Shown here: positions 30,001 through 54,000 of the stretch, piece by piece
Layout: each line of letters begins with the position of its first letter
Numbering within the stretch: the first letter of the stretch is position 1
Source of the DNA: an uncultured Planctomycetia bacterium
Lineage (GTDB): Bacteria; Omnitrophota; Gorgyraeia; Gorgyraeales; Gorgyraeaceae
DNA: 64,000 bases
Assembly: GCA_964415355.1 (NCBI GenBank)
Contig: CAYPYS010000001.1
Location: 283,819-347,818 of the forward strand
Direction: 5' to 3'
Translations under genes and position numbers: made by a program
Notes under the pieces: generated by a model
The model's input: the letters and a program-made list of their open reading frames with translations, nothing else
What the model was told of the DNA's origin: nothing
The model's database searches: none

Positions 30001-33000
30001 AATTTTAGGTCTTTTTGTAATGCCGAATCTACGAAAGATCTTAGTTACATAAGCTGCTGAACCAGTTGCCGTTAATTGCGCATAATCAAAGCTGTCAGCT
30101 TTCCAAACCGTATCTGCATAATGCAGTGCATAAGCCATCAGAATAGTGCCAATTCCCTGATTCCTAGACCCAGAAGCAACAGCCAAACTCGCAAGAAGAA
30201 CAGTTGTATCTTCCTTAGATATATAGACGAAAGCTATTACATCTCCGTTATCATCCTTATAAACCCAATAAGGTGTAGCAGAAGGGTTTATAATTATTTT
30301 AGGGCAGGTTGAAGCAGCCAGATAAATCAGGAGATTGAGTTCATTAATCACATCAACATCTTCATTGGTCGCTGGCTCAATACGCTCCCACATTGCCTTT
30401 GAGAAAACATGTCTTCTCCCAAAAATCGTCACCTCAATTGTCTCATCCTCTTGTACTCCTCCTCCAAATCCAGCAGCTGGAACTATTTCTATTTGGTTTC
30501 GAAGCTTCTCACAAAGTCCTAAGACTTTGTGATCTGCATGAGCATCACTAAAAGTAATAGCAGCCATCAGACTATTCCATGAAGGAAAATTCCATGCTTT
30601 CACTAAATCCTCTTGAGTCTCACCAAAACGCTTCAGCAAGACAAATGTACCTGCCCATTCAAAAACCATCTCGATCTGAGACGTAGACCTTGTATAGTAT
30701 ATTCTGGCTGTTCTTATACCAATCAGAAAACGTCTAAACCTAGTAGGATCTTTATTTAATTCTTCACGCGTTACTTCTAATAATGGAAGCAATTTTCCTC
30801 CTTTCGCCTGATCAGGAGTAGGCACTTCTTCTGAAATAGCACGATAGAGTGCCCAAAAAGCCTTTTCTCTGGGAGTCTTCTTGTTGCCTACGTGGTTCTC
30901 TAAAGCCTTTAATAGACCCCCGTGCGGACGTTTCTCTGAGGCATAACCCAAAGTATTGGCTAATTTCTTTCTATCGCTAAATCCTCTTACAAAAGCTAGG
31001 GCCCATTTTTCAAAACCAGGCCAATCAATAACTTCTTGGCTTATGAAGTATATCCCCAGCCATGTCTCAAAAAGTTCAGGTTTTTCCATTACACCTTTCA
31101 ATGTCACATCTGCTTCACCAGAAAATTCTTGTGCACGCTCATAAGTCTGTACTTTTATTAAAGCTTCGTGAAGCGTCTCTCTGGCTGAGATGATTTTTTG
31201 ATCATGAGTTCCCTTAGCTTCAAAACGACTAATAAGCGACCTGAGGCTACGAAATCCCCATATCTTTATTGTCAGATATTCTAGCTTTATATTTGTCCCC
31301 TTTATTTTTTCTATTTCTAACGTAGCCCACTTTAATACCTCTATTGGCTCTAGGCGTAGTCGTCTCGGCCAGAGCTCATAAAGTTCTTTGGCTCTTTTTA
31401 GTTCTCCTCTTACTGATATATACCATTCAGTCCATTCAAAAAATGACCTCTTGCCTCGTTTAAGATCTACAACTGTTGGCGCTTTACCTTCAGCTATTAT
31501 CTTAAACAGAATCTTTAATACCTCATATGCGTGCTCATCGTCATTATTTTTTGCATACTCATTGCAGGATTCAGTCAGACGACGGCTAATGATATTCATA
31601 GGAGGGGTTTCACCTTGTTCAAAAATACCCAGCTTGACTACAATACGCGCCGTACCAAGATCTTGCTCTGCCATCTCTATAACCTGAGCGACTACTGCAT
31701 TAAGACTTTCTTTGGGTAAATAATATAATTTCTTTTCTTGAGGGTAGTCAGGCGCCGCATCAGCTGAATCTTTGGGCATCTCTATAGGTGGCTCAGGTGT
31801 TTCGCTAGGCGTATGAGGAGGCTCACCGTTTTCACAAACCTTGTTAACTATTCTGTGTAACTCATAAAAACGCTTTACAACGTCAGGATGGCTAGGTTTA
31901 ATTTGCAATCTATTAATCAATCCAGCAGTTGTCCTGAAACTCCTATGCCCCCATCTGTCTAGTCTTATCTCAGGCCTTTGCGCTTCTTCTATAAAATAAT
32001 CCAGCACCTCTAAAGGCCTGTCACGAAGACAGACAAGCCAGATATTATAAATACGCTGACGATAAGAATCTGGAACATTTTCAAGAATAGATGCCGTATT
32101 GCTAAGCCAATCATTAACCCACGATCTAAACGTAATATCCATTTGCTTTCCCTCTTCAAGCTCGGAACGCGATAAGCCCAGACCTGGCCCTATAATAATT
32201 CTAACTACTGCTCTTAACGCAATATAACACTCCCCAACATCAGGATCTTTAATTTGAAAATGTCTTTGAGATCCCGTTATTTTGTTTATAATGCCTCTTT
32301 TCTTATCTGTACATTCTAATTCTCCAGGCTGAATAATACCTGCTGCTATAGCAATCTCCTCTATCCCCTTGTTCTCCTCAGCCATTGCAACAATCTTTTT
32401 GATAACCTTATCAAAATCATCATCTGTTAATTTATAAGGTTTAGACTTAATGTGACCAGCGGGATCTGGAGCTCCAGCTCGTATAGATCTTCCAAACTCT
32501 ATATTAGCCAGTTTTATATCTTTAATACCTGCCTCGTCAAATGCTTCTTGATCTATCAGCTCAGCCCAGCCTCTAGCAATAATTCCAATAGCGCTTCTGT
32601 ATTCTCTCCTTTTCACCCAAGAGTCTACCGCTAAAAGCCATAAGGTAAAGGCATTAAGAAGCTGCTCCCTAGAAAATTGCTGCATCCCGACTCTCCGATA
32701 AATCTCCAAAGTCTCTTCATACCCACCAGGCCTCTCTTCTAGGCTAAATTCAAAATCTGAATCCCATCTCGTAGTTATTCTGGCTATCTCCATATCCATT
32801 TTTGCAGTATAGTAAAGATCATTTTTCATCACAGGAAATATTATCACATTGCCTGTATCAGTACATCTCAGTAAATATATCTTTTTTCCTTCAGATAATA
32901 CAAAGAGGGCTTCTAGGAAATTTTCTGCTTCCTTGCCTTTACTTATCCCAAAATGATCTATAGCCTCTTGAACTGTAAACCATGCCCGTCCAAAGTGCTC

Positions 33001-36000
33001 CCCTATCTTCTCAAAACTTTTCTGATATATCTCGGGAGAAACTTTCTCCTTGTCAGGCTTTGGTGTCTTCACCATCATCACAAACGCGCCGACGGCAAGA
33101 AGTTCTTCTATTATGTCTATTAAAAACATGATCCCTTGTTCTATAAGAGGAAATATATAACGTTCCAGGAAGACATGGTGGAGAATAAAAGTTAATACTG
33201 TAATTGCTAAAGCTAGCCCAGCTCCTTGAGCTCTGAGCCTGCCTGCTTCTGCAATGTCTCCCTGTTCCTTTTTATCTTTAAACTCATCTCCTACAGACAG
33301 AAATTTACTAGTTACCCCAATTAAAACTGCTGTGACTAACAAGATAAATAACACATCCCAGACAATATCAGGAGAAGGCCCTGCCTGGATAAACTGTGGC
33401 AAACTTAACATTTCAACAATGTTGACATTGTCAAAGAAAAGGTTTACTTGGTTGGCAAAATAAAAAAGTGGCAGAGGTATGATACAGCGCATCCTTGATC
33501 TGTCGAATAAAGATGATACAACAAGCGCCAACAAAAGAAGTACGCTTATTAACAATAAAACTTCTTTGGGTAAATTTAGAAAACGATCCGTCGCTAGCTT
33601 GCTTCCGGTTATAATCCTGTCGACGCCCTCTGGTGTTACCGTAGGAATAATTGGTGACGGTGTTACAACCGGCCCTCCAAAAATCCCTTCACCCAGGCCG
33701 CTTATAATAGAAAGAGGCGCGGAGATACATGACATTAATAATTCATCGACAGCTTGCCTGATTCTGGAATCTTGTTTTTTCCTGCGCCTAACATTAGTAA
33801 TACCTACTTCGAGCGCTTTAGCCACATCTGTCGTACTAATCCTCTTTCGCCCATTATTTCTTAGTTTCGATGCTATAACTTCTACATTCCTATGTCCAAA
33901 ATGTCCGTCTGCATTCCTTCCTTGTCCTTTTTTAAATCCTTCTTTGTCTAAAAATTCTGACAAGCGACCCTCTGATAGTCGTATAGCTCTCATAACATCA
34001 TTTGTGCCAACGCCTAATCTGTTAGCTAAATTCCTGCTGGTCTTTCTATGAATTTTCCAATAGGCTCCTGTTGCTGCTTCGCGCACTTCACTCTCACTAA
34101 GATCAACAGCTGCTTTACGCGAACAACTTACAACCATCATAGGGATAACAATGTTAAAGTGTATACTTAAAGATTGCTTCGCACCTATGGCACTCGCAAT
34201 GACAGAATACAATGCAATAAGGGCGATTATAGCTAACAATAGGAGGATAAGCTTTGCTCTGGAGAAAGCTAAGCTTGGTTTCTTTTCTTCCCCTTTATTT
34301 CCATTTAATAAACCATCAAGCAATTCTCGGATTCTGTGATCTTTTTTCGTCTTTACCCATAAAGTCGAACTATTAACTCCGAGTACAGAAGCTACATCTT
34401 TCTGTGTAATATTTGATTTCCGTGTAGCACCTGAGCTTCTCGTTCCTCTTAAATATTTTATAGCAGCCGCGACATTTCTATGTCCATAATGTTTTTTATT
34501 CCCAACTGCCGAACCTGTTACAAAATTCTTTTCTCCTAAAAATTCTACTAAGCCGGGCTTGGACCTCATAATAGCACTCTGAACATCATCTTTGCCAACG
34601 CCTAATCGATTGGCTAAGTTCCTAATATTCTTTTTTCTAAACAACCAATATATACCTCCTGCTGCCTTACGCACTTCACTCTCACTAAGATCAACAGCGA
34701 AGTTTGTACGGTTAGACCCTGCCACAAAGTCCTTGTCTGTTGTATCTACCTTTAATATAAGTTTTCTGCCATCACCTGAAACTCTTGTTGCGTGGTAAGA
34801 AACCGGCTTTTTACCATCAGGAATAAATACAAATATCTCCTTAGCAGCCGTTTCAAGCCTAACATCTGACGCCAAGATAGCCTGTGCCTTCTGTAAATTT
34901 ATTGCGCCTTCAGATATATCATCCAAAACAAGTCCATTCTCTATCAATAGAGTTATTACATCGATCCTTGCCTCATCCATGATCTCAACAAGCACGCTAA
35001 CAAGGCAATTCTCTAGCAGTAAATTGTTAATATGGTACCCAAATGCCTGGTTTGCCTTCAGGTATTCTTCTCTGTCCTTACCTTTATAGTCGACTTCTCT
35101 TCCACCGAGCTTTTCTATAAGCTCCATGAACTCTACTCTTTCTTCAAAGACATATAGGATGCGTTTATTTTTACCCTGGATTATATGCTCTACGGCTGCT
35201 TTTCCTAAGAGACTGCACATGGCCATGTCAACTTCAGAAGTATCAGCTGACCTATAGAGATAATCTATCTTTCCAGCCTCTCTGACTTTTATACCTGCAG
35301 ACTCGCATAGATGGCTTATGATGGCTGTAGTGATACGTCCTGCATCCTTTAGTTTTGGATGTCCAAAGCCGTCGACTTTTCCTTCAGCCTGCTGAAAAGC
35401 CATTCCTGCAACTTCGTCTTTACTAAAGGCGTTTCTCAATACTTCTTCATTATTGGCAAAGCCCTTGTCTATCTTTACGCCTTCCGAAACGATCACTATT
35501 GCGTAGCCGTAATCCTTATAGTAAGCCAAGAGGTCTTTTCCTAGCATTTCAAGGTCAAGGTCTTCTTTTTCAGGTATAAGGGCAAAGGCTACATTGGCTC
35601 TTGCGCCTATAGCCATGGGTGCAAAACCAGCGTTTCTCCCAAATACCTCTATTACCAGGATATAGCCAGTAGAGGAGGCATCTATTATTGCGTTCTCTAC
35701 GCCTAGCGTGCCTGCTTTGACAAAGCTGTCATAGCCATAGGTAGAAGCCCCATGAGGAAGGGCAATGTCATTATCCATGGTCTTGGGAAGGCCTATGATT
35801 AAAAATTCAGGAAGTATCTCTTGTAACCTGTAGGATGCTCCATTAGTGTCGTCTCCTCCGCAGGTTATAAGGCCGTCTAGCTTTAAGACCTCAGTAATAT
35901 TTTTTCCGATAAGTTCGGGTATACCGCCTTCGATGTTCTTCTCGCTAAATGGATTAAACCTGGATGTGCCAATGATAGTAGCTCCTTTTGTGCGGTGCAG

Positions 36001-39000
36001 TTCTGCTTCTTCCAGCGTAATAGGAGCTGCTTTTCCTAAAAGTTCCTCATCTGCCAGGCCTTTCCAGCCGTTCCTTATTCCGATTATTTCTATGTTGCCT
36101 TCATCATGTGCTCTTTTTACAGCTGAATATATGACCTCATTGTGGCCTGAGGCAGGTCCGCCTCCTGTGAGGATACCGATCCTTTTTGTTGGTGAGACTG
36201 TGCCGGCAAATAGAGCCACCCCTATTCCGTAAGTATACATTTCAACATTGTTAGATTGTGAAGTTAAGAGTTCTAAGGGAATAGATATGAATGCATCATT
36301 GAATGTGGATAAAAGAGCAGTGACAAGAATTGCTATGCAGAGCAGAATAAGGACTGTCCAACGTGGCGAACCTCGCGGAGATTTATTGTTTCTCCAACCC
36401 TTTGATCCAAAAAGACCGAGGAACATAAATGCGTATGCGAGAGATTGCTTCACACCTGCGGTATTCGCAATGACGTCGTGTTTATACATCGCGATCAGGG
36501 ACACGCTATCGAACAAATTAGCAAACGGTACAAGAAACTCAAGAAGCTCTGGATATATATCTATCGCGATCGGTAATGCATAAGAAGTGGCTCCCCACAT
36601 GGTCCACGCAGACTGAACTGACATTGCGATGAGGCCAAAGATCGACGTTTGTCCAGCAAAGCCTTGGCGTAAAATAATGCTGCAAATTAATAATCCATAC
36701 AAGATCGCAAATATAATAATAAAACTAATCGGATTAGCAATTAATCTAAGGGATATCCTATTGAAAATCGTGTCGATAATAGGCTGTTTCTTATCGGCAG
36801 ATCTATTTTCTAAGCTGTCTTTAACTTTTCTTAGTATCTCAATTGAATCGCACATAGACTCTGTAAGAATTATACACCGAGGTGGCGCATCCATATCAAA
36901 GATATATCTCGTCACGGTCTCCAATCTTCTAAGATCTTCTATATCTAGCTCCTTCCCTAAAGCCCTGAACTCTACACCTTTTAAAGCGGTGTCTCCTAAC
37001 ATAGTTCTTATATTAACTAGAGTATCCTCTGCGCACTCTGCCTCTCCTGCAAGAAGAACAACGGGAATATTGCCTCTGTCTTTGCCTAGTTTTAGCAAGG
37101 CTTCACTAAAACGAGAAGGATATTCAATAACGTCTTTATCTGTGAATAGAACTGGAGTTTCTTTCAAAGTAGAAAGATTCACTGAGTAACTTCTAAATAA
37201 CATTAAAAAATCTTTGGTAAGTGCCATAGGATCTTCTATCATCTCTCTGCAAGCTGGGTATAGCATTAATAAATCTTCAGTAAAATCTCCTGGCCTAGCA
37301 GCTATCCACTTATCTAATTTATCCAATGTTACCCACTTCACAGCATGCACTTCTTCGTTTGGATAGATCTTCCCGTCAAATCTAGCAAAGGCAATATGCA
37401 TTGGCACATATTCACTCTTAAAACCAGAACCGTCTTTCTTTAAACGTTGCGAGATAAAACTCATTGGTGTACCAAAAATTCTAAAATCTACATCGCTATC
37501 CCTAACCTTTCTCTCATTTCGTAATTCTTCTATAAATTCCCTGGGTACTGTTACTTCAAGAGATTCTCCGCTTATAGAATGACCTGCAAAAGATATATCC
37601 CAAAGACTAGGATTATCCTTAGTTGAAGCGCGTTGCTGAAGAAGTACCTGTCCTTTTGAATTTGATACAAAACATTTCATATGCTTGTTTAATAGACCCA
37701 ACTCATGGATTATTTTTCTGGGAAGACTACCCATGTATATTATTCTCCCATTACCATCCTTTTCAAAATAATCTAGGATCTCGATTCTTTGTCTTAACTC
37801 TAATAGCATCTGAGTAAAGTCAGATTCTTCTTTATGTCTACTTACTATATCTAAAATTATTTCAAGTTCTCCTACTATCTTTCCATTTTCCTGATAATAA
37901 ACAATTAATGCATCTAATATTTTTATAACTATATTAAAATTAATATCATATAGTTCTCTATTATATAAAACATCGATTAGGCGAGCATAGGCTTCCAAAA
38001 ATCTCTCCTGCTTGCCATGCATAAGACCCGTTAGAAGATTCATTGTAGCAGAAGATGCTGAATCAAAATGCTTGGGTATCCCAGTAAGCATAGAACGAGC
38101 TTCTTTTTTTATTAAAGCTGTGACATTAAGATCTCTTTCTGCAGTGCTCCTATCATGGCGCACCACCCAATCAAACAACTCCAAATTCTCTTCTAAGACT
38201 TCAGATCTATCATTAACTATAGTTATCACATCACTTAAATCAGATATACTTGTCAAGTAGTCTACTATAAAATCAGCTCCTTTTAGTAGTCGCTTAGCAA
38301 TCTTTGTTCTGTTGCTCAATCTCTCTCCAAGGGTTTCTTCGAGAGCACCTACAATAGAAGCCTTATCTAAATCTTGAACTCCTTCTGGTGATACAGGCAT
38401 AATAAAAGCTACTCTTGCATGAGGAAAACTCTTCTTTAAAATTTTAACATGTTCTATAGAAGCCATATGAAATAGCAAGATCTTGCCTTCTCTAGTAAGC
38501 TTATCGAGCTCTTTCTTCTCAGATGCATAGTCGTCTCCGTAGATTTCCCATTGTACATCAAACTCCCCTCGATCTTTTTTCGCCTCAAACTCTGCTCTAG
38601 TTACACATTTTTTATCGTCTCCTGGGCCACGATAAGGTCGCGTTGTCCAGCGCGTAGGACATACCACTTCATCTGGATATTGTCCCTCTAAAAAATTCAT
38701 AAGAGTACTTTTGCCTGCGCCAGAAGAACCTGCCACAGCAATAACAGTCTGCCTTGTCACTTCTTGACCTATATCATTATATTTTTTGTAGATTTGATGT
38801 AATAAGAAAAGACCTATGCCTATTATAGCTAACATAATCTCGTAACTTAACACTTTAATGTTGTTGAAATGTAAAATTAGGGTGAGGACAGCGCCTATCC
38901 ATGCAAAGATAAAACCTACAAAGATCAGAGAGCCCTCTTTGTCGCTTCCTATCTGTATTTTTAGTATCTCTTTTTCTGATAACTCAGGATTCTTCTGATG

Positions 39001-42000
39001 CAGGAGTTCATGTTCAAACACTATATTCTGTGCCCATTTAGGGAGATAACCATAGGCGGGATGATATTGGATAGTATCAGTAGTTTTATCATATGAGGCT
39101 ATTGCAGTACTATAATATGCTATGAATCTCGGAGGGCCTCTTTTCTTTATTGTATCTATTATAAAGGCAAGATATATTGCAAAAAATAACATGAGAAATT
39201 TCACGGCCTTTGCAAACTTAAGGTTAGTAAGGGCTATCCATGCTCCCTGTAAGGCAACCTTAGGAGACATAGTACTCTGTAAATTAGCAGGCAATGTCTC
39301 TGTACGAAGCGCATCTCTCCTTGAAATGCTCAAGGCCAATTTTTCTGCCCTTGATGGCATCTCTTCAAACGTTAAAAGCTCTGATAATATCCAAGCGTCC
39401 CACTCTCCTGGAACAGGCTCTGAAAAACCGAGACGGTTCTTTACATCATCTAATAACCAGCTAAGAAAACGGGTCAATTCTTCCGCGGACATTCCCCTGT
39501 CTTTAAAATCCTTATAAGCCCGTTTAGCGATAGGCAATAATAACTCTAAGGATGTATTTTTATGATGCCGCAGCCATCTCTGGATATCCAAATCGGCTTC
39601 CAAGATGCCATGACTGCGATACCACGTAAACCTCCCACTTGCACGCCAATAGTCCAATCTGCTTCCTACAGGCAGCCCTGTATTAAGCCACTTTTTAGTT
39701 TCGGCGTCATGCTCACCAAGCTCCCAGAGCGACCATTCAATTAGTCTGGCCATTCTTTCTTCGCTCTTGATCTGTGCCTTTTTACGGGCAATCAAAAGAT
39801 CTTCTAAGGAGATCTTTTCTCCTATCAGCTCCTCGATGCTGACATAGGGCTTTTCCATTACAATCACGCCAGCCCCTGGCTGATGGAACCATCGTCTATC
39901 AGACCAGCGATAAGAAGCGTCAAAAAAGAGAAATCCTTCCCGTTGCAAAGAATCCACCCATTGCTCGATTGCCTTGAATTCAAACGGAAACGGCATAGGG
40001 CATTCATTGACAATAATATTGACATACCAATCACTGAAAGCCAAAAAGAGGTTTTTCTGCTCACGATTTAAAGCTAGGAATAAGTCACGCAACTCTGGAA
40101 ATTCAGGGTCGCTACCCACAGTAATAAGCATGGAGTAGCTGTCTTCGAATAGCATTAATAGTCCCCCTTGTTTTAAAATGCGCTTATTTTCCTCTACAAA
40201 GGAACTGAAAAATCTTTCTTCTACATGATGCATAACAGTATGTTGTATTACTACATGGACTTCTCCATCTCTAAAAGGCAAGCTAGTAGGATCAGTCTGA
40301 TGACAAAAACTTACTCTCTCGCCTTGGTATGGTTCATTAACTCCCATGTCACAGCCTATAACCCTAAGCCACGGCCTGCCTCTGACCATCTCCCTTCCAA
40401 GAAGATTCTTGCCCGCCCCTATATCAGCAACAACTACATCCTCGCCTGTATGGTCGTAAAGCGCATCGATATATGGCATGACTAACTCTAAAGTAGGTTC
40501 GAACTTATTCCCGCCCTGGCGATAGAGTCTGTAGGCTTCTTGAAATTTAACATCTGTCTTAAAGCGAATGACTTTATCATAAAGAACCTCTTGCGCTTTT
40601 ACAGGATCATTTGCATGTTCTCCCAAAGTATCTATGATCCTCTCGGCTAGGTCAGAGGGAAGTTTGTATCGCGAATATCTAAGTGTTAGTAGCCCTAATA
40701 TTACTTCTCTTACTTCCAAATCCTCTAAGGCTATAAGAGGATTCCAAGCTAATGGAAATTGATTTTCTTTAATAGCGACTGCACCTAAAGCTTTAGTTAA
40801 TAGATTCTTCCACGGTGGACTGCGCGGAGAATCACTGTTTCGCGAGTCTTGTGATCCGAAAAGGCCTAAGAGCATAAGAACAGGGCCTATAAGAGATTGC
40901 TTAACCTCTGTGGCGGTCGCGATGGAGGCAGTAGAGGCAAATATACCTGATCTCCCCAACATCTGAATAAGGTATATTAACATTAACGAAATAGAAAATG
41001 GATTAACGATCCACATCATAAAACCATCCCGGAACCTTGGATATCTCCAGGTAATCCTGCCTTCTGTAATAGGACGTCCCATAGGAGAAGTCGCTGTTAT
41101 TTCTCCCTCTACAGAGCCTTCTCGTATGTCTAAATGGCATATCCTGATCACTGTTAGGAAATGAATTAACGCGACAATAGAAAATATCCAATAACTGGCT
41201 GTAAGAAATGTAAGATCAAGGACATCAAAGGAAGTGACAAAAATCCACGCAGCAACACCTAATATAACAAATATACCTGTTGTCCATTGCATCCATCTGC
41301 GATATTCTCTTTGAGCTCTAATAGCTGTATTCTGATAACCGCGTTCTGCAACCTCAGGTCCCATATTGGAAAAAGGATCATCTGAGTCAGGTTGTTCTAT
41401 AATTTCTGGCATAGGCCTGAAGAAATCAAGCCACCACGCAGTCCCAATACCAATGCCAATACAATAAGCTATAAAAAAAGCCTTAAGCCCTGCATGTCCT
41501 ATGTTCAATAGTGCATTTTGATTTATAGAGTACAAGACCCATGAAACCCATGCCCCTATGAATAGATACCATAACAGCCTATAGAAATTCAGCATTCGCC
41601 TGTTTATAGAGTCATCATCGGAAACCGTGCCTATAAAGATAAGGAAAGAACTGGAGAGTACAGAAAAGGAAGACATGTCAGAGACTATTCCTGGCGGGGC
41701 ACGGCCGGCAAATATGCTTCGAGCAAAGTCGAGGAAGTGCCGAGATGTCCCGGCGAGGCCAATCTTTGTGCCATCAAATACCAAAGGCAGCCAGTCTACA
41801 TTTTCCTGGAGCGTCATAAAAAACCAGCCAATGCCAAAGGCAGCTACTATGATAACAATCAATCCGATTGCAATAGCCCATAGGCTAAATTCTCTATTTT
41901 TTGCTTTAGATAGATCAACATCTCTTGCAACATGTTCGTTAGCAGCTCTACGCTCTCCTGTCTGAGCCTTCTTTGTCACGCTCCTAGCCCACATAGCTAA

Positions 42001-45000
42001 CAAGAAAAATACCGCAACAATAACTCCTATAATAGCTATAAACGGATTTCCACCAGCCCCGGCAGAATAACCCACGTCTGACATTAAAAATGCCGTTAAA
42101 ACAACGGGAATAATAACATATGCTTTTGCCTTGATCGCCTTTTCTGCCTCTGTTTTAGGCAAAACTAAGAAAGGTATCAACCGAATAATATCCGAGATAC
42201 ACCCTGCAAGAAATAAAATATTTATCTCACCAAGAAAAATCAGAACATGTGATCCACTGTTCAAACCAATACGAACTAATATAAAACCTGCGATACTGTG
42301 TATAGCTGCAGGCATTATTAACGTAAAAATCCAACCCAAAACAGAATCAGGGAAAACTTTAATGTCAGCTTCAAAACCCATAGCAAATCTCCTTACACTT
42401 GCTCCCTCTGCCCCAAACAATCTAGCTACCCATACATGAATCATTTCATGAAGTAACGTCAGACCAAAAATAGCTGGTATCACTAATCGAGCAGCATCTG
42501 TTTCCTTCCACACATTTTTTAAAGAAGCCAAACTTACGGAACCATTTAAGAGATCAGATATAATCCCATAACCAGGGATGCCAAGTAAAACGATATAGAC
42601 GGAAATTACGAAAATGGAAATGATAGCCACTGTTAAAATTAATGGAGCACTTTCTTCTTCTGGATCATTATCTTCTGGATCACTATCACCCAATCTGCTG
42701 TATGCTTTGGTGTTTCTTGCAATAATCATTATGATTAAAAGTGCTGATGCTGCAATTAATATTGCTTTAAAAATCATTTGAGATGTAGCAGGACTGAGAG
42801 TAAGTTCAAGTTGCTTTGACTGCTCCACGGCAGCAGTCAAAGCTGTTGCGTCCTGAGGCTGCGGTATATATGTATCAGCTATAAGTCCTCCGAAAAAACC
42901 TATCAAGAAACAGATAACCGCAGGGCCAAAAGAAGTTCTATCTCCTGGCTCTTTTCCTAATTCTGAAAGGCCTAATCCGAATACCATCCCTACAATTCCC
43001 AAAACAACAGCAGTTACTAAAGGAGTAATTTCAGTGGAAGAACTTGTCTCTGAGTTTACGCAGCCAGATAGGAATAAAAGAACAGATAATATTAATAATA
43101 TAAGCGGGGCTCGTGAATACCAAGAATCTCTATCTTCTGACTTAGCAAAGATAGAACCCATGAATAGAAAACCAAGAGATTGCTTCACACCTGCGGTGCT
43201 CGCAATGACAGGACTCAGTGCGCCATTAAAATTAGCAGCAACAGGCATCATAGAGCTTGAAATTTCTGACGCTATAAAAAAATGATAGATTATTAAACCT
43301 ATAATAACTAAAAACAGAAGCTGGAACATGGCTTTGATAATTTTTTGGCGCATTGTAAGAGGAGGGCCAGTTTCAATACATCCTCCGCATTGTACAACCT
43401 TACTAGGGATCTCAACGGATGGGTTCAATTTTTTGCCTACTATTCCTAAAATAATGTGCACAAGAATAAATAGAATGCCTCCTATCCACGCAGCTGCTCT
43501 TAGAGAAAGATCTTTATATATCAGAAGCCACCCAACTCCTAACATAAGCAAATTAAAGATAGACCATAAAAACTTTCTTACTCTTATATATTCCTTAGAT
43601 ACATTGGTGTCAAAGACAACGTAGCTGCCTCCACTGCATTGTGCACTTTCCCCTGTATTATGCTTACGCTGGCCAATACCTAAGATAATGAACATAGAAA
43701 CATAACTTTCCGTTTCAGGCGCGAATAAGCCAGAACCAAATATTTCACCCCAGGTAGACAATACAATACTAAAATTCTTCGTAGCTAACCATGCTGCAAT
43801 AGCTGCAACACCAAGAAGAACCAATCCTAATTTAGGTCGTTTATTTAAAAAGGATGCGATAGCGAACCACGTAGCCCCAATTATAGCAGCAGAACCACCT
43901 ATGGACCATAAGATAGGCTGTATTAAAAGATCCTGAACGCCTTCTGCGCCATGATAGATCTTCCAACGGTTAAAAGGCATGACTACTTTAAGATCGAATG
44001 TCAGCTTCGCATACAATGCAAACAAAATAGCAAAAACAACAAAAAGTGCAGCGCCTATCACAATCATCCAAAACATGGCTTGATTAGTAAGTTTTGTTCG
44101 AGCGCGATATAAAATCTCTCTTTCACTTGGCGCAGCAAAATCTTGTCGTGCTAATTCTTCTTCCGTTTGTCTCCGCGGAAGTTCTTTTTCAAGAAAATCT
44201 TCAAAAATATTTAAACGCTCATCGTCAGATCCGCCTCTTCCTGTAGTACAAAATAATACTGGCAATAATATATCAGGAGAAGCAGGGAGATGTGAAGTTA
44301 AGAGCTCTATCGCAGGCGATATAGCGGAATTTGGGTTATTATCAGGCAACGCTGATATTAGACCTAAAACTAAAGCGAAAATAACAATAATTGCAATAAT
44401 ACAGAACGCAGTCGAAAATTTCAGTTTTTCTGATGATTCAATATAATCATATTGTGTTTGTGTAGCAGAGACTTTCCCTAACTGTTGCCTGCGTCTTCTT
44501 AGATCCTCTGTAGCTTTTATTATTTTTCTTATGACTAAGGACATAATGATAAGTAAAACAACCTCCCCTGCTAAAAAAGCATATGAAAACGTATTTGCAT
44601 CTTCACCATGATGTCCTGGATGTCCTGCGGCTAGTACTTGAGAAATAGGAATTGCTGAAAGGATTAAAGCAAAAACAGGTATTGCGAGGATCTTAAGAAG
44701 TTTATACCATGGAGGGCTGCGTGGAGACTTGTTATTCCTCCAACCTTTCGATCCAAAAAGAGTTGCGACTATAAGCGCAGAACCAATAAGAGATTGCTTT
44801 GCGAAGTTTATCCCGAGCGCAGTCGAGGAACTCGCAACAACATCCTTGCCTGCCATAGCAATCAGAGACATATTGTCGAATAAATTCGTAAACGATATAG
44901 AAAGCCCAAAAACATGTCTAAAAGGAGTTTTTAACATCCAGATCAGATTTCTCCAATCAAACAAATCCAACACCGACAAACATCCTATAACAAAAACTAA

Positions 45001-48000
45001 GATAATAACTGAAACTATTACAGGCACTCGCCGCGCCACCTTTTTCTTTATTTCTTTATATTTTTGACCTGCTGCCTCTCTTCTCCTAAGATTTTCTATT
45101 CCTTCTGCATCGGGTCTTATGATAACTATAGCCTCATTATCTAACTTTAAAGAATCCCAATAAAAATTAAGGATTTTGTCTGTAACAACACCAATTAAAT
45201 TTATAATACTATGAGCCATTATAGCGGCTAACATTCCGGCAAGCCTCCCATATAAGATATTGCCTATGGTATAGAGAATAAGAAAGAACCCCCTATAAAG
45301 AAAATACACGATTCTAGTTTTTGTAGAATCAGCACTATGAGCAAATGAAAAAATACCACAAAGGACAACCGCCCCTAATATCAAATTATTGAGCATTGAG
45401 TCAAAGACAATGACATAACAACCAATGTATAAAAATTCCTCAAACAAAGGAAATATAGACACCTTGAAGAAACTTGTTACTATGCTCTTTTCCGGAAGCA
45501 ATCCGTTTATTAGAGGGGCTTGTATAAGTATTGATGCTTGCACAGCAAGCAGAGTAAGAATATGCCATATTAGCAAAGAAAATCTAAAATCTTGAATTTG
45601 GATTAAATCAAAAATATCCCATATCAAACATGAAGATAAAACTACTGAAAAAACAAAGAATATAACTCCAGAACGCCATGAACCAATAATATCTAAATCA
45701 TTTTCTTCTGGATACTTTGCAGTTAAGATCTTTTTCACTAAACGCCATATCAAATAAAACTCAAGAGTCATTATAATAAAATTGGCTATAAGAGCTCCTG
45801 TTCTAATGTCAAAAGCCCTGGCAAGAAGGATTAAAGTAAGAGTGGGTATTGCGAGGATCTTAGCAAGTTTATACTTAGGCGGGCCGCGGGTAGAATTGCT
45901 GTCTCGCGAGCCCTGTGATCCAACAAGACCCAAGAACATAAATGGAAGACCGGCAAGAGATTGCTTCGCTTCGCTCGCAATGATGGAATAGATTCCCGCT
46001 TTCACGGGAATGACATTGGTTGTAGAGAGGAAATAGGTTATACCTATGAATAATAATATTGCGGTTGCTGCTGTGGGGGCTGCTGGAGCAGTTGGCTTAG
46101 CTGAATCGCCGTTAGTCTTTTCATTAGCTATAACTATCACTTTTTTTAAATACTTACGGTCTTTGATAAAATTTTCGTCTTCTTTGAACCACTCTATATC
46201 AAGAGCTGGGAATCTCTGTTTGTCATTCAATAAATCACGCATCTTTTCAAAGACCTTTGAAGCCAAAGCTTTTGCTTCAAGATAAAGCTCTATAATGCGT
46301 TCCTTGAGTTCCTCATGGGAATCCTCTTTAGCTATCCTGCTTAATGTTTCCGCCTTGTCAAATACCTCATCTACTTCTTTAAGAGCCTCTTCGATTTCGT
46401 ATCTAAACAAACGCTTCTGAGCCGTTATAGTCTCTATCTCCGCACTAAATAATTCCACAACTGTCTGGGATGAGTAGACTCTATCTTTTTCGTCTTTTAA
46501 CAAGCTATAGTCATAATTATCATCGAGTGAGTTTAGTAACTCACGTCCTTCTTGTATCTTTCTGTAAGCTGCCCCAGGATTAGGTTCTCTACCAGGCTCT
46601 GCCTTAGGATCTTTGCCTGGTTTTACTCCTTTGAGTAATTCTTCTGCTTGTAAAATAATTATTGCAAGACGATTCTCAAACCTTGCTAATTCCTCTTCAA
46701 TAAACTGTCTACTGATATCATGTATTATGCCTGAGAAAGTTCTTATATTGCTAATATATTCACTATTTTTTATATTCTCAGGTGCTGCTTTTAATACATC
46801 TATTAATTCATTGCATTTCTCATGTCCAAGCACTCTATCCCTAGTCTCTTTATGCGCTACATAGATATCCTGCACATAAGGCACCAGACTAATCACAAAT
46901 TCTGTTATCTCTATTGCCAGAAGCAATGCAATACGGACTGCTTGTATTTCCTCTAATGACTGCCATAGATTGCCTCTATCGTCCTCTCCTGGTTTGATGA
47001 TCTCTAGTGCTCTAGAATAATTTTCCAAAGCCCCCTCATAGTCACGTGCGGCAAATAAATGCCACGCCTCATCGGCATAATCTGCCAGTCGGCTCTTTAT
47101 ATTCCTGAAAATTTGAGCGTTTTGTATTGCTATAAGGCTGGTGTAGATCTCGTCTGCTTCAGTAGATATTTCTTTTAATAAAGCATCGATATCATCATGC
47201 CTGATAAATGAAGTAGGCAGCCTCATTTCACGCAGTAATGCCTCTGGATCCTTTAAGGATTCAGCCAGGTTAAGGGCCTCGATCAAGTTAGGCTTTCCGT
47301 CTTCTGATAAGGCTTGTTCTATTGCTTTTATCTTTTCCATAGATGCTCCAAGCCATTTTTCTATACGCGCTGTCCTTATCCTTATCGTATCTGCTTTAAT
47401 CCTTTGTGGTTCACCTGTCTGTTCAGTAGTAATTCTTATAAACTCTACGAAATCTTTCCTTTGCGTAGCCAATGCTTCTTGTTCTTCCCGTTCTGCCCAT
47501 TCTATTCTTTTATTTCTAAGCGCCTTTACCACCATAACTGGATTAAACATCTTTTCAAAAATAACGCTATCGTCACCGGCAACCTCTATCTTAACAGTGC
47601 CATACCGAAATACATTTGCCCAAAATCCCTCCAGCAATGCCTCTTCGCTCTGGATCTTATCAAATGGTATCTCCTTTTTGTCGCTATCTTCTGGCGGGAA
47701 GCCAGGAAATGTCGGTATCTTAAAAACAAACCCTATCCTGTCTTCTCTTAAGATAAATTCATCATCTTTCCAATCCTCAACTGCATACCAGAACTTGTAT
47801 AATGCAGCCAATAAAGGTACAGCAGCAGAAATAATAGCTCCTCCGCCTATCACTCCCGTTAAATCCAGCAAGAAAACTATCAATGATATTAAAACAATAC
47901 CTTCGGAAATAAGCCCTGAATAATCATTTCTCTTATCCTCTTCATCATCCTCTTTTTTATTAAAATTAAAAGCTGCTAGATGCATTAAAAATATCAATAT

Positions 48001-51000
48001 TACGCTTATGCCGAGCCAAACAAGAATGCCGAGAGAAAATACTTTGGCAACAGTTAAATAGAGCATGACCGTAATTGCTCCATGTGCTAATAAACTTAGG
48101 GCTGGCAAGAAAGCCTGCCCTATTAAAATAAACGGGTGTTTACGATAGTAAATCTCTTTATCTTCTGACCAGCGATGCGCAGGGAAAAACGGCAAAAGCC
48201 TTTGCTCACTTCCTATGTTTTTCTGCTCTATTTCTCTCATGGCCTTCTGACGAGCTTTTTCAGCCTCTACTCTCTTTAAAACTGCCTCATCCGGCTCCAA
48301 GCCTCTTCGCCTGGCAATCTCTATATCCATAAGATCTGTATCATGCGCTGCTCTTCTCTTCTCCTCGATCTCCTTGGCTTTCTCTACTATAGTTACTACC
48401 TCTTTTGCTTTAGCCGCAGAAATGGGCCCAAATACTATCTCTTTCTTGTGACCAGCTGAATCTATTTCAACAAAGCATGTCCCAAAAATACCCTGTAAAA
48501 AAGTCGACTTTATGCTATTATGCTGATATTTTTCCAAGTCTATAGACACATCTGCTCTTAAAGAAAATAATATGTTTTCAGTCGCTGCGACACGCCTGTC
48601 AGTAACTACAATAAAATCATTTACAGAATCATGCCAAACATAAGCCAAAAATGCGCCATATATGCCTAAGACTATTCCGCTTGTAAATATGAATGTACTT
48701 AAAGACATGATCTTTAAAATACCTAGCTTAAAAACAAAGAATGGTAAAACAAATATCGTTAAGGCTAAAAGAGTAACAGGCAGAGCTATGCGTATTAATA
48801 GGTGAGAAATATGTTTTGTCTCGCAAAACAAGACTTTTTCTCCCTCTGTAAGCCATTTGAAATCCTTGCCTTCTAAGACTGGCAATTCTTCTTCAGCGCC
48901 ACCTTCAGTTACTACTATGGCATCTCTAGGAGTTTCGTTAGTCTCATATGCCACTGGCGGAAGATCAGTAGCGACACTGATCATGGTATCTTTGGTCTCT
49001 GATTCTTCAATTAAAGTTCTTAAAGCACTGAGATCTGGTTCTTTTGCCACAACAGGGATCCCTTCTATTGCAGTTTTTACTGCTCCTGCAATGCCCTGGC
49101 CTATTTTCTCTATTTCTTTCACGATATCTCTTAGGTTATTCTTTATGCGCGCGCGAATAATACCTATTTTAGTATTGATATCTGTCAGTTCGACTTTTGG
49201 AAAATCAAATAAAACAGGCTCTGGTACTTTCTTAGATATAGGTATTGATGACAGATCGAGATCGCCTCCAGTAAGAGGAGACAATAACGCATGGCGCTCA
49301 CGACCACCGCGAGACAATGATTCTCTAAAGCTATCGCTGAGCATGTCTTGGCTACGGGAAGAAACTTCTTCTCCTGCTCCGAATGAAGCCATTACTGCTG
49401 TTGCAGTGCCAGCAGCTGCAGCTCCTCCTGCAGCTATCTCTGCTGCCTCTGCAACTCCTGCAGCCAATTCTGCAGCCGCAGCCATCCTTCGCGCTTTCAT
49501 GATACGAGAAACAGCAGTTATTGCACCAGTTAAACTCGCAAGGGAAATGCCTCCGCCAACACCCATTAAAACAGCGGCTTCGCCTGGCTCTTTACCTGTA
49601 ACAAACATTATGCCGACAACTACTACTGTTACAAGGCCTATAACAAGGCCTGCGACAATGAGTATCTTTGCCAAAAGCGAGACCTCGCCATCTCCATCTT
49701 CATCATCTCTATCTCTTCTTCTCGGCCATTCTCTTTCTGGTCTATCCTTCTCAACAGGCCTATCCTTTGGCTTTATCTCAAACTTTGGTAGTTTTGGAAA
49801 CAAGTCACCTAGCTTAGGAGGATCCCATTCCCTTGGTTCTCTTTTAGGCCTCTCGCGTTTTACCCTAGGTTCTCTCTTAGGAGTTGGTCTTTTTTCACGG
49901 TCAGGTTTTCGTTCAAGCAATCTCTTCAGCACAGAAATAATCCCACCTGCTGCGCCTATTGCGCCAGCTCTCATCATAGCGGCGATCGCCTTAGGCGTCA
50001 GCCTCGGCCCCAGATCACTGATTGCCTGGATAATGGCGCTGGATTCTTCTTCATCATCAGCTTTTAAGAAATTAAGGACAAAGCCGACGCAATCCCGCAC
50101 CAGTGAGATTGAATCATGCAATACGGCTCCGAAATTATCGTTAAATAGTTTAGCTATCGGCCAATCTTTTGGCATCCCAAGAGCCACTAATGCTGCTTCC
50201 TCTGAATTCATGTCTTGCTGCGATATACCTTTCCTGCCTATCTCACTAAAATAAACAGTGTGGCTGAGGGCAATATTTATATTCGCAAATAATTCCAGCG
50301 CATAATTATCAAGGGTCTTGCGGAACTTGTCCAATGTAACGGAATCTTTATTGCCTTTCCTCGCATTTTCTATAAGATTGTCTATGATATCTTCTACCTC
50401 TAGCTTTGTCTTAAAGAGACGGTTTAGGGCATTTTGTAACTTAGTCTTGTCTTTACTATATTTATAGACATCCAGATGTTCCATGATATAGGCAATGCGT
50501 TTTTTATAGCTCTCCAGGCTATCAGAAGAAGCTCGTTTAAGGGCATTCACTAAATGATCAAGCGCATCTTCTGCTCCTTCTACTTCCAGGGAATTTGATT
50601 TTCTAAAAACCTGTACCAGCATAACAATGCCTTCATAACAATCTCTGCCGACTAACTGAAAACCTGCCCAGCGAGCGATCTCTCTATTTACTGCAATGTT
50701 CTGCTTTATAAGCTCTTCTCTCTCATCCGTAGAATCATTATTTGCTAAAATATCTTGATCGTCACCCGAAATCGCCAATTGCTCGTTTAATCTATCTAGA
50801 TCTTCTGATAATTCTTTGGCGCGCGCTTCTAACCAGTTTATATACTGATTTACGCCATCTTCTCTATCTATAAACACCCTATCCATCTGTTCTGGAGTCG
50901 TCTTTCCCAGCATTTCCTCATGGTTACGCAGCATTTCTTCTCCCTGCCTAAGGTCATTTTCCTCTGCTGCTATATCTGCAACATCAGTTTCTAACTCAGC

Positions 51001-54000
51001 CTGCTCGTCTTGTATGCCCTGGTCCTCTGTTTTTAAGCTTTCATTTTTCTGGCCTAAGTCTACTTTTCTATCATTCAGCTTTCCGTCTTCATCGATGATC
51101 TCCTGTCTTTGAGAAGACAATCTAACGCCTTCCTCTGCTGCCAGAGCCAGGTCTGTTTCAAATCTGTTGTTTTGCGCCTGCAGCTCTACCTTGTCAGTTG
51201 CTAATTGTCTTTTTCCTTGATCTAGCGCCTGCCCCATTGCTTTGTGTTGAGCTTCCTGTTGTGCCAACACCTGCAGTTTTTGCGCTAGTTCCTGCTTAGC
51301 GGCTTCCAACTCTTCATCCCTGCTCCATCTCCTTATAACTTCTCTCACTAATTCTTTGTATAGGTCTTCTATATCTTCTTTGCTATTCACGGCTTGTAAG
51401 CACTTGATCAAAAAATTAGGCTTACTTAACTGATCGATAAAACCTATGAGTAACGGGTACTCTGCTGAATCTTTTATGACTGGTTCCTGCCCTTCAGTTA
51501 ATTCTCTAAAAACTTTTTCCAGGCCTTTTAAAGCCAAGCTATCAAAGCCTTGTTCGGTTTCAATGGACAAGGTTCTTGGGTCAACTACATCATCTGGTAA
51601 TGATCCTCGCACCCGGACCCAGACTTCATCAAAACTCTCTCCCCCGCTATTCCTAATAGAAGTCAATCTTTCTCTTTCTTCTAACCGCGCTTTCTCATCT
51701 TCTGATTCCTTTCTCTGTATGGCTAATATATCTCCGGCTACTTTGTGTTCAGTCTTCTGCTGGTCCAATTCTCTTTCTCTGGCTTGCAATGCTAGCTCTC
51801 TAGCCTTTAATGCTTCTATTCTTTTGCTTAATTCATCTTGTCTTTTTCGAAGAGCAGCTTCCAGTGCCTTTAATTCTTCATTTCTTGTCTTTAGCGCCCT
51901 TATATCAGTTTCTAATTGCCGTCTTCCTTCCTCTACCCTTTCTAAATTCTTACTATAACTCTCTCTTCTATTATCAAGAGTTTCTCTCCTTTGTCTTAAA
52001 AACTCTCTTTTATTTTCAAGGCCTTGTCCCCATTCTTCAAGCTCTCTTCTCTGGCGCTCAAGCTCTTCGGCATTCTGCGCCTTTCTCTCTTCAGCAAAAA
52101 GCCCTTCATGCTGCAATGTCCAGACAAGCAATACAAGGTAAGCTGAAAATCCATATTTAAGGAGATTAAGCCTCTTCGAGAATTTCTGTACTATCTTTTC
52201 CTTATCTTCTTCGCCGTTAAAATCTATCCATACACGGGCGATCCTTCTCTGGCTATCAGAGTCTTCGCCGCTTCGTATATCTCCGATCATCGTTAGATAG
52301 GTATTTATCTCCTCGCCTGCGGTAGATTCAGCTTCGGTAAATTTCTTCAAATATGTTATCAATACAGCAATATCTTCTAAGTCTCGATCGCTGAAAAAAT
52401 TCGCCTCTATGACCATAGCCCCTGCTTCGTCCCTATGGTCGCCGCTGACAATATGACTGATCTCGTGCATTAACTGAGCTTCTATCAGAGCTAAGACTGC
52501 GTGTCGGCAAGCGCGTATTTCTCTATTCTTCTTTTCCTTAGAAAGATAGATAAGCAAATAAAATAAATCCGGACTTATATGCACTGTTGCAATGTATCTT
52601 TCAAAATCAACTTGCACGCGCCATGGCCTGCCAACCAATTCATAGTCAATGATACACTGCAGCCTCCCTCTATGCTCCCCTGGTCTTTTCTCGTCTTTTA
52701 AATAGTTAAGCCATGTCAATGCTGTGCGCTCTTTGTCTGTCTTGGGTTTTCTGCGGCTCAATAAGCTCAACCCGCTAAGCTTATTGAGATTAGAATCCCT
52801 CATGACTTTTCTTAAAATAACATAAAATTCTTTTGGTAATTCACCATTAAGTTCAACGCCCTTTATACTAACCGGCAAGCCGACCCTAAACATGCCAGAG
52901 GCCCTGACCCCATGCTCACCTGGTTTTTGCCCTCCAGAATTAGGGTCAACGTGTGGCGTTGTCGGATCTTCCGGAGTTTTAAAAGGTTTGATCACCCAGA
53001 CTGGTTTCCCGTCAACAGCAACATAGTGCTTATCTTCCTGATGGTCATAAACAGCTCCTTCTTTGCTGCCAAGTAAATAATCTTCCCAGGTCAAGTGACG
53101 CATGACTGTCTTCCAGATCGCATTCTGCACACTTGGAGAGCTCATAGGATCACCTGGTGGAAGGAGCGGCGTGACTTTAGTGCTGGCCAATAATTCAGTG
53201 CCTTCGTCGGTTTTCCCGTTATTCATCTTATTAAAGGCCTCTACTGCCATCGTCTCCACTACCTGGTCAGGAATCCTATCATCTCTAACAGCTATGTCAC
53301 TGCGGTCAAAGCCAGAACTTGCCAGGTTCTGGGCCCTCTGTATGATTTCTTCTCTCTGCATTCCTGCTGCTTCATCGCTTCCTAACCAAGGTTCATACCT
53401 ATTTACAAGCTCTCTTGCTCCTGTAGATAATCTTGTCTTAGAATGCGCCTCTTGGCCGCTAGCAACAAATCCTCTGGCTTCCGCAAAAGCATCCCAGGCA
53501 AATTCTACTGCCCGTGCCAATTGCCCTGGCATCCCGTCTATCTCATCTTCTACGGCCTGCTTATCTCTTTCTAATACCTCGACATATCTCGTTAAAGCCT
53601 TGACAGACTTTGATAGATCACCCAGGTCTTCTACTCCTTTTGTCATCTCTTCTGGCCGACTATGCATTACTGACTCTGCAACTCTATAACCATCGATGTC
53701 AACAACCACGTTATCCCCAGCCTGAGCTATGTCAACTTGCTTACCAAGTTTCCTCTGTATTGTCTTTATAAGATACTCATTGAGTTCCCTAGAGCGCATT
53801 GCAACAGTAACCCGGCGGCCTGGCGTGGCAGCTATTTTTTTCCTGACTGCCTCTGCCCTCTCTATTGCAGCCCTGCGCTCAGCTTCGCGATATCGTATAG
53901 CCTCTACCAGGACTTTATGAGCTCTTTTCAGCCGCCTACGTTCCCTTGCGGCTATCGTCTTTACTTCCTGTCTCGCTTTAGCTTGTTTAGCTTTAACTTC

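Follow-up and report, generated by a model that had tools for sequence, protein, structure and literature searches.

The stretch analyzed here, called the window throughout, comprises 64,000 nt from an uncultured Omnitrophota bacterium (GenBank assembly GCA_964415355.1, contig CAYPYS010000001.1, positions 283,819 to 347,818), and our subject is a series of peptide units carrying the motif KQSL within the single gene that fills it. On the minus strand (1..64000), one frame runs through all 64,000 nt with 0 stops and exits both ends, encoding a protein of more than 21,333 aa that is partial at both window ends. Residues were numbered from the first full codon, residue i beginning at window position 63999-3(i-1). 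The plus-strand GC skew is negative across the window (-0.06 to -0.27), which fits one long minus-strand gene. The protein is a mosaic of Pfam domains that includes bPH_2, methyltransferases, guanylate kinase (GK), NUDIX and phosphofructokinase (PFK), along with GNAT, Ser/Thr kinase, HATPase_c, HEAT_2, HD_4 and RelA_SpoT, and a hydropathy scan returned 128 transmembrane (TM)-like segments, densest at aa 5000-10200 and aa 17000-21000. By the length of its open reading frame (ORF), its TM richness and its Pfam mosaic, compared with published descriptions, the host is a giant multi-enzyme gene of the Omnitrophota type.

KQSL units of the giant protein

KQSL occurs six times in the protein, at aa 6012, 6401, 6939, 7700, 9184 and 9941 (window positions 45966, 44799, 43185, 40902, 36450 and 34179), whereas residue-shuffled versions contain it 0.29 times on average and twice at most. 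A preliminary description of the window, made from the letters alone, had listed five copies at 36.4, 40.9, 43.2, 44.8 and 45.95 kb; all five were recovered, together with a partial sixth at 34.18 kb that it had missed. The five form full units of ~48 aligned residues, in which a VIAS-like string and KQSL are followed by 11-13 hydrophobic residues and the basic cluster GSxGxRxxS(P)RxPP(W), with unit-versus-unit BLASTP E values down to 3e-14. A hidden Markov model (HMM) built from these units, a check proposed with the preliminary description, found no further copy in the 21,333 aa. All sites are confined to aa 6000-9950 of the more than 21,333 aa, a protein with many more module boundaries, and both GC and CpG content are higher in the units than in the gene. 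Methyltransferase, GK, NUDIX and PFK modules do lie between the copies according to Pfam, as had been stated.

The layout first proposed, namely signature, short hydrophobic run and basic cluster ahead of a TM helix, stood in its first three parts for all five full copies. A TM-like segment directly follows four of the five units by hydropathy scan, the exception being the copy at 40.9 kb, and unit 3 is divergent. Unit 1 (45865..45999, minus strand like all the units; aa 6001-6045) contains the hydrophobic run and basic cluster and is followed by a TM segment, and unit 2 (44698..44841; aa 6387-6434) continues after its signature with a hydrophobic run and GSKGWRNNKSPRSPPW, then a TM segment. 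The downstream peptide diverges in unit 3 (43090..43227; aa 6925-6970), which is directly followed by the lipoprotein-signal-like segment RAPLILLILSVLLFLSGC (43060..43113, minus strand), its helix ending in a lipobox, LSGC. Weak NCBIfam matches here were invert_tail (E 7.7e-4, below cut-off) and the LptM and EexN lipoprotein signals. Unit 4 (40801..40944; aa 7686-7733) keeps the downstream peptide and has no TM segment directly after it, while unit 5 (36349..36492; aa 9170-9217) runs through GSKGWRNNKSPRGSPRW and a TM segment to the PFK module. The partial sixth copy (34165..34218, minus strand; aa 9928-9945) has the VIAS..AKQSL part only, its downstream peptide not being conserved. Two paralogous segments of ~60 aa lie nearby on the minus strand, at 34510-34698 (aa 9768-9830) and at 33922-34110 (aa 9964-10026), the second directly after the sixth copy; they read AVDLSESEVR...RNLANRLGVG..DV..AI and resemble a small helix-turn-helix-type module.

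A hairpin element beneath the signature

Aligned as DNA, the six KQSL copies share the invariant strings CATTGCGAG ... AAGCAATCTCTT. The codons AAG CAA TCT recur in 6/6 copies and the rare GCG in 5/6, an invariance that the codon usage of the gene itself would give with a probability of ~1e-6. Three control 4-mers with the same count of six in the protein (GASL, IALP and LASL) vary freely in their codons. The proportion of synonymous differences (pS) was 0.15 for the KQSL codons versus 0.63-0.68 for the 27 codons downstream.

The window holds six exact matches to the two-part pattern ATTGCGAN-N5-30-AAGCAATCT, of which 0.00 are expected. Four are KQSL copies (those at 44.8 and 40.9 kb do not match exactly) and two are new sites. 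One of these is an antisense element on the plus strand (24352..24379; pattern match 24,355-24,378; covariance model score 39.5 bits, E 2.7e-6), which is translated as RLLRFARND (aa 13208-13216) and forms a head-to-head pair at 24.35-24.43 kb with a degenerate sense-oriented partner at ~24390-24428. The other (22820..22855, minus strand; pattern match 22,821-22,852; 35.4 bits, E 2e-5) is read in another frame as LLRGAAGDKAIS (aa 13716-13727). In-ORF elements are read in three ways, six as VIAS..KQSL, one as LLRG..KAIS and one as antisense RLLRFARND, all of them stop-free. A weak, sub-threshold IS009 Rfam match adjoining the 22.8 kb element (22891-23003, minus strand; 22.9 bits versus a gathering threshold of 117, E 0.11) is most likely chance.

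The element takes the form YGTC-ATTGCGAG-(variable stem)-GAAGCAATCTC, that is, YGTC-ATTGC-GA-(variable stem-loop)-GAA-GCAAT-CTC, and spans 28-56 nt in the window. Its parts are a 5-bp outer stem (ATTGC/GCAAT), a GA/GAA internal loop, an inner stem of variable length and the tail CTC. A covariance model built from 23 copies, with three window elements among the training set, found exactly six canonical elements in the window, at E 9e-9 to 1e-4. Within the units, hairpins were placed at 45957-45984 in unit 1 (32.1 bits, E 9.5e-5) and, in canonical form, at 43176-43209 in unit 3 (51.3 bits), at 36441-36474 in unit 5 (50.2 bits) and at 34170-34203 in the sixth copy, where the hairpin stands alone and is read as VIASAIGAKQSL (49.4 bits). 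The 44.8 kb copy in unit 2, an expanded hairpin at 44791-44840 with a 30-nt centre and a fold of -15.4 kcal/mol, and the degenerate 40.9 kb copy in unit 4 (CCATCGCGAC...TTAAGCAATCT) are recognisable by flanks and position only.

Inner-stem pairing is maintained across copies. Five of five inner-stem pairs have changed on both sides, with a covariation score reached by 0/500 shuffles of the gap-free alignment, and centres with stems of at least 4 bp, counted from the outside in, make up 36% of distinct centres versus 4.7% of shuffles, with 32 different stem sequences. Window copies have the same fold as elements elsewhere. The shortest variant, ATTGCGAGCGAAGCGAAGCAAT (45957-45984 and 24352-24379), contains GCGAAGC, and d(GCGAAGC) is an unusually stable DNA mini-hairpin with sheared G-A pairs. 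Longer variants have one or two tandem GA/GA internal loops. These features hint at a structure of single-stranded DNA or RNA for which nearest-neighbour energies are an underestimate.

Outside the window, the element is widespread. When 160 copies were collected with a pattern lacking a fixed tag, GTC preceded 133 of them, as TGTC in 93 and CGTC in 36; the window elements carry CTGTC, ACGTC and TCGTC. Species representatives in GTDB were scanned with GTC and C added to the pattern. The element was present in at least 120 viral contigs and at least 120 GTDB contigs, where we estimate a chance expectation of ~2 for the genome scan. The taxa include Chloroflexota, Bacteroidota, Patescibacteria, Omnitrophota, Alpha-, Gamma- and Deltaproteobacteria, Firmicutes, Atribacterota, Planctomycetota and Nitrospirota, among others. 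There are often several elements per contig, frequently as inverted pairs, and one Novosphingobium megaplasmid has at least 40 copies. Long open frames are depleted of the element (54-66% inside versus 90% for background), frames of at least 800 codons hold 8 of 333 copies, and all three annotated loci examined, in a Nostoc plasmid, a Methylosinus plasmid and a Helicobacter prophage, were intergenic. Arrays and clusters were also seen: in one viral contig (L032, 2698-2819) four copies follow one another every 33 nt, a Caldatribacterium contig has five within 2.9 kb, and two Chloroflexus contigs have four each.

Rfam searches of the window and of five multi-copy viral loci gave no match at the element positions, by gathering or E-value threshold, and searching the literature for the element DNA and its typical translations (RLLRFARND, CHCEE.., SDEAIS and others) returned chance primer matches only. 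A hammerhead reading of GAG-stem-CGAA was rejected, as CUGANGA and stems I and III are missing and Rfam shows no match. A crude test of orientation relative to flanking gene starts and ends elsewhere revealed no bias; therefore, we claim no strand-specific RNA role.

Because its codons are invariant and the element recurs in other frames, in other orientations and in intergenic DNA, the KQSL signature is a DNA-level motif. The KQSL core is very probably a translated repeat of the repetitive extragenic palindrome (REP) type, and it is incidental that AAGCAATCTCTT and GTCATTGCGAG translate to KQSL and VIAS. Comparing codon invariance with synonymous saturation offers a simple test for separating nucleotide-level from peptide-level motifs in giant proteins.

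A proposed composite unit and its alternatives

The peptide downstream of KQSL behaves differently. Across its 27 codons pS is saturated (0.63-0.68), the proportion of nonsynonymous differences (pN) is 0.26-0.36 and the ratio of nonsynonymous to synonymous substitution rates (dN/dS) is ~0.25, with Ser and Arg codons switching between codon families. This segment of ~30 aa consists of a short hydrophobic stretch, a Gly/Ser/Arg/Lys/Pro loop (GSxGxRxxSPRxPPW) and, in four of the five units, a hydrophobic helix. It occurs in five places only, each with the element and in the same strand and frame, and was not found beside the element in 240 foreign loci. That it might be a second nucleotide repeat was considered and rejected: it has no copies in other frames or on the other strand, none at the 240 foreign loci, and its substitutions are peptide-like. 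The basic cluster and the next helix are under peptide-level purifying selection. By its hydropathy, the downstream part would be an old duplicated membrane-insertion linker whose charged loop obeys the positive-inside rule. The preliminary description had offered positive-inside topogenic signals as its second choice, and this suggestion fits the selection on cluster and helix.

We consider it probable that the whole composite is a REP-like in-frame hairpin, comparable to the Rickettsia palindromic elements (RPEs), fused to a duplicated linker peptide. An ancestral unit with hairpin and peptide would have been duplicated at least five times in the membrane-embedded third of the giant protein. 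The peptide part would serve as a topogenic linker, its positive loop staying cytoplasmic and the next helix re-inserting the chain between modules, while the hairpin part may be retained for its action on DNA or RNA, as is usual for REPs, for instance as a stable hairpin that influences mRNA decay or DNA topology. Since the gene leaves no intergenic DNA over more than 64 kb, the element would have had to lie within the ORF, in tolerant linkers. The units appear old and yet their hairpin flanks are intact, which points either to a DNA- or RNA-level constraint of their own or to repeated re-insertion or conversion.

Several points weigh against this explanation. We found no orthologous giant gene in which the KQSL sites could be compared with and without the element, and for that reason insertion as opposed to ancestry is inferred only. 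Insertion of a purely selfish or neutral kind does not account for hairpin flanks that are intact beside saturated synonymous sites. Three related giant-gene fragments have no in-frame element, so being forced into the ORF is no general rule. Centre lengths keep one frame in 6/6 copies; we attribute this to common descent, and selection on the peptide would give the same result. Folding z-scores of single copies are modest (-0.2 to -1.7), hydropathy is the single basis for the topogenic role, and the assignment to REPs tagged with CGTC goes by described features and not by consensus sequences.

The related giant proteins bear on several of the alternatives. An exhaustive HMMER search with unit 5 and PFK found PFK modules 45-56% identical embedded in other proteins of great length, the longest with 7,819 aa. 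Word-indexed searches found nothing, whether started from the motif alignment, from a 1,251-aa NUDIX-to-PFK segment or from the membrane segment at aa 6184-6267, and protein-based searches of GTDB genomes and JGI metagenomes found no relative. The preliminary description had made conservation of the motif in homologous giant genes a test of its proposal, and the motif is in none of the PFK-bearing giant relatives found. The hairpin had no copy in three related giant-gene fragments (22-27 kb). At a fourth related locus (L245), a copy at 476-518 is intergenic, 23 nt upstream of the start of a multi-enzyme gene (P0014). In one PFK-containing protein of 1,287 aa (P0031), a variable loop of a conserved N-terminal domain (aa 219-250) reads VIASVAKQSFNSKKIATSPSAPRKD and carries VIASVAKQS...IATSPSAPRKD; in the homologs P0033, P0025 and P0007 the loop is shorter or different and these strings are absent. 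At the protein level, the P0031 loop resembles two copies of the element, inverted to each other and read in frame.

These relatives have recurrent junction motifs of their own, each giant protein with a different one between modules and several directly before PFK: SSSP[IV] ten times, xDGG[KTGSQA] nine times, (G)EKSYPAG six times and RTLPCIAGIAILGAAAL four times (P0001/L248, P0002/L246, P0014/L245 and P0004/L247). The P0004 motif is nearly identical at the DNA level. SSSP[IV] and xDGG are encoded by freely varying codons, with Ser switching between TCN and AGY, which marks both as motifs of the peptide; they make better candidates for cleavage or linker sites of Omnitrophota-type giant proteins. 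In the window protein no ubiquitous junction peptide was found. The tripeptide DGG is absent from its 21,333 aa (4.6 ± 2.2 expected) though recurrent at junctions in several relatives, and GASL occurs six times (0.7 expected) with variable codons; neither the absence nor the excess is robust after multiple testing, by which GASL was also rejected as a junction peptide.

Among the alternatives to a hairpin fused to a duplicated linker, one is that the units are fossil gene boundaries, each consisting of a former intergenic REP and the N-terminal signal anchor of the next gene, left behind when neighbouring genes fused; in a variant, the conserved ATG 18 nt after the hairpin is possibly still an internal start. 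The element is normally intergenic, often just upstream of gene starts, and the copy 23 nt ahead of the related multi-enzyme gene is a case in point; within the units, a Met codon (in four of five), a basic region and a hydrophobic helix follow the hairpin, with a lipobox in unit 3. However, five independent boundaries sharing a homologous 30-aa peptide would need duplication after fusion, no Shine-Dalgarno-like sequence precedes the ATG, and copies in other genomes have no preferred orientation with respect to the starts downstream of them. Synonymous saturation and a dN/dS of ~0.25 also argue against it, as they imply that the region has long been translated. We regard this origin as rather unlikely.

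The preliminary description had favoured processing or sorting sites, with the giant protein cut autoproteolytically at or near the KQSL units by embedded protease-like modules, which would free the enzyme modules. Whether the products of Omnitrophota giant genes are cleaved is an open question in the published work on them (West-Roberts et al. 2023, bioRxiv 10.1101/2023.11.21.568195; 2026 preprint 10.64898/2026.06.07.730766). The units are located between modules, their downstream peptide is under purifying selection, and related giant proteins own short junction peptides conserved at the peptide level. Furthermore, a gene with a PF02517 (Rce1-like/CPBP) match (L245, 14223-14720) adjoins one related giant gene, lying ~1.5 kb downstream of this 4,059-aa multi-enzyme gene with the EKSYPAG motif, and is a possible protease partner. 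Two membrane segments between the units could in principle supply the activity. The first is CPBP-like (45199..45450, minus strand; aa 6184-6267), lying between units 1 and 2, with a triad recognized by eye (EEFLYIG, FSFAH and HSIIN; spacings ~30 and 42 aa). Compared with the family motifs EExxxR, FxxxH and HxxxN/D of successive TM helices, the Arg of motif 1 is replaced (EEFLYIG), and family membership is unconfirmed. PF02517 was not reported for aa 6184-6267 at E up to 10, neither NCBIfam, PDB sequences nor homolog searches gave a match, and the AlphaFold2 model has a pLDDT of 50. The CPBP domain said to be flanked by two copies therefore comes down to an imperfect triad seen by eye. The second segment, TM-rich and after unit 3 (42169..42468, minus strand), holds the motif HEMIH at aa 7184 (42450), as had been noted, and weakly matches DUF3267, a putative zincin peptidase (E 3.5e-5, 24.5 bits against a cut-off of 27.1), with M50 at E 0.19. 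Another HExxH motif, HELLH, lies in a soluble stretch in the 39012 region (aa 8330) with no family match.

Against processing at these sites, the signature is a nucleotide repeat that recurs in other frames and orientations and, in unrelated genomes, between genes. In an NCBIfam scan of the units that admitted E values as high as 10, no sorting-signal model matched; the hydrophobic run, 11-13 aa long, falls short of the TM helix in signals of the LPXTG or PEP-CTERM type, and five sites in more than 21,333 aa are few for a protein with many more module boundaries. The motif is also absent from related giant proteins, and the CPBP domain went undetected by every search. Nor do the units resemble viral-type polyprotein cleavage motifs, there being 5-6 sites whose most conserved residues are fixed at the codon and not the peptide level. 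Autoproteolytic segmentation is unlikely, and we see no support for KQSL as a sorting signal. Reading the sorting-signal-like signature of a polyprotein-like gene as a translated REP-type repeat removes a tempting false lead.

The hairpins might instead act on expression of the giant gene, by transcript processing or protection or by translation restart at the conserved ATG, a Met codon that lies 18 nt beyond the hairpin in all but one of the five units. We give this little credence. If true, it would explain intact hairpin flanks amid saturated synonymous sites, and the giant ORF would, at least in part, be expressed as a stop-less operon of membrane-anchored modules, each ATG heading a signal-anchor-like N-terminus. 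Repeated site-specific insertion, in which a mobile REP entered a preferred target in an older duplicated linker independently 5-6 times, is highly improbable. The centres do differ in length (6, 12, 12, 12 and 30 nt) and sequence, like independent element copies, and the flanks look young amid saturated codons, but 5-6 events at the same codon position, orientation and frame would be needed, no target-site duplication was seen and no transposase is known for CGTC-type REPs. Chance or low-complexity resemblance, suggested by nothing but the shortness of KQSL, is refuted by six KQSL against 0.29 expected, by the HMM and BLAST statistics and by six DNA pattern matches against 0.00 expected.

Comparison with known systems

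Like published Omnitrophota giant genes, the host is stop-free for tens of kb and has many TM helices, and both have HEAT_2, HATPase_c, NUDIX, methyltransferase, GNAT, HD and glycolytic domains. It differs in its in-frame REP elements and KQSL motif, which are unreported in 10.1101/2023.11.21.568195 and 10.64898/2026.06.07.730766.

The likeness of the KQSL units to C-terminal sorting signals (LPXTG/sortase, PEP-CTERM/exosortase, GlyGly-CTERM/rhombosortase and MYXO-CTERM with its CPBP-type myxosortase), the first two of which the preliminary description had named, is a superficial one of tripartite order. Unlike those signals, the copies lie well inside the chain, with thousands of residues on both sides, and 11-13 hydrophobic residues stand before the basic cluster in place of a full TM helix (~20 aa). 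The signature, moreover, is a DNA repeat with no HMM match and no confirmed sorting enzyme. Palindromic amphipathic repeat coding elements (PARCELs) are closer, as coding repeats with DNA dyad symmetry that are tied to membrane-targeted proteins and found in distant taxa; PARCELs, however, form tandem arrays of 25 residues that a protein HMM signature describes, whereas the KQSL units are scattered and palindromic in their first ~12 codons only.

With Rickettsia RPEs (PMC10969869) the element shares a palindromic repeat that is read in frame, lengthens the peptide while the ORF stays open and can be accommodated by loops or linkers, and its stop-free in-frame read-through likewise occurs in more than one frame and orientation. 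RPE-1 is ~150 bp long and encodes its own conserved peptide (PMC10969869), whereas the element here measures 28-56 nt and sits in one giant host gene, not in many housekeeping genes. Unlike RPEs, the copies were apparently spread by duplication of a larger unit, and hairpin flanks have been kept amid saturated synonymous sites.

Di Nocera et al. (2013, PMC3733652) describe CGTC-tagged REPs as having CGTC unpaired at one of their ends, a tag 'changed to TGTC in many repeats', a stem of 8-9 bp, a loop of 4-5 nt, the tail CCA and a mostly intergenic location, and their superfamily includes Neisseria dRS3, with intragenic R. conorii copies corresponding to RPE-4/RPE-6. Measured against this description, the element agrees in its unpaired YGTC tag, a stem starting A,T with compensatory change, a short 3' tail and variable loop/stem subsets, as well as in head-to-head dimers, high copy number in alphaproteobacterial replicons, occurrence in many phyla and a mostly intergenic placement with some intragenic in-frame copies. 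It departs from the description in its stem, composed of ATTGC, a GA/GAA internal loop and a variable inner stem, and in its tail, CTC and not CCA. By these described features the element fits in, or next to, the CGTC/TGTC-tagged REP superfamily, with no named family assigned. The system is no new sorting system: the closest known things to it are intragenic REPs and RPEs and, more loosely, PARCELs, and it adds an intragenic REP example from outside Rickettsia, in an unusual host gene without intergenic space for tens of kb.

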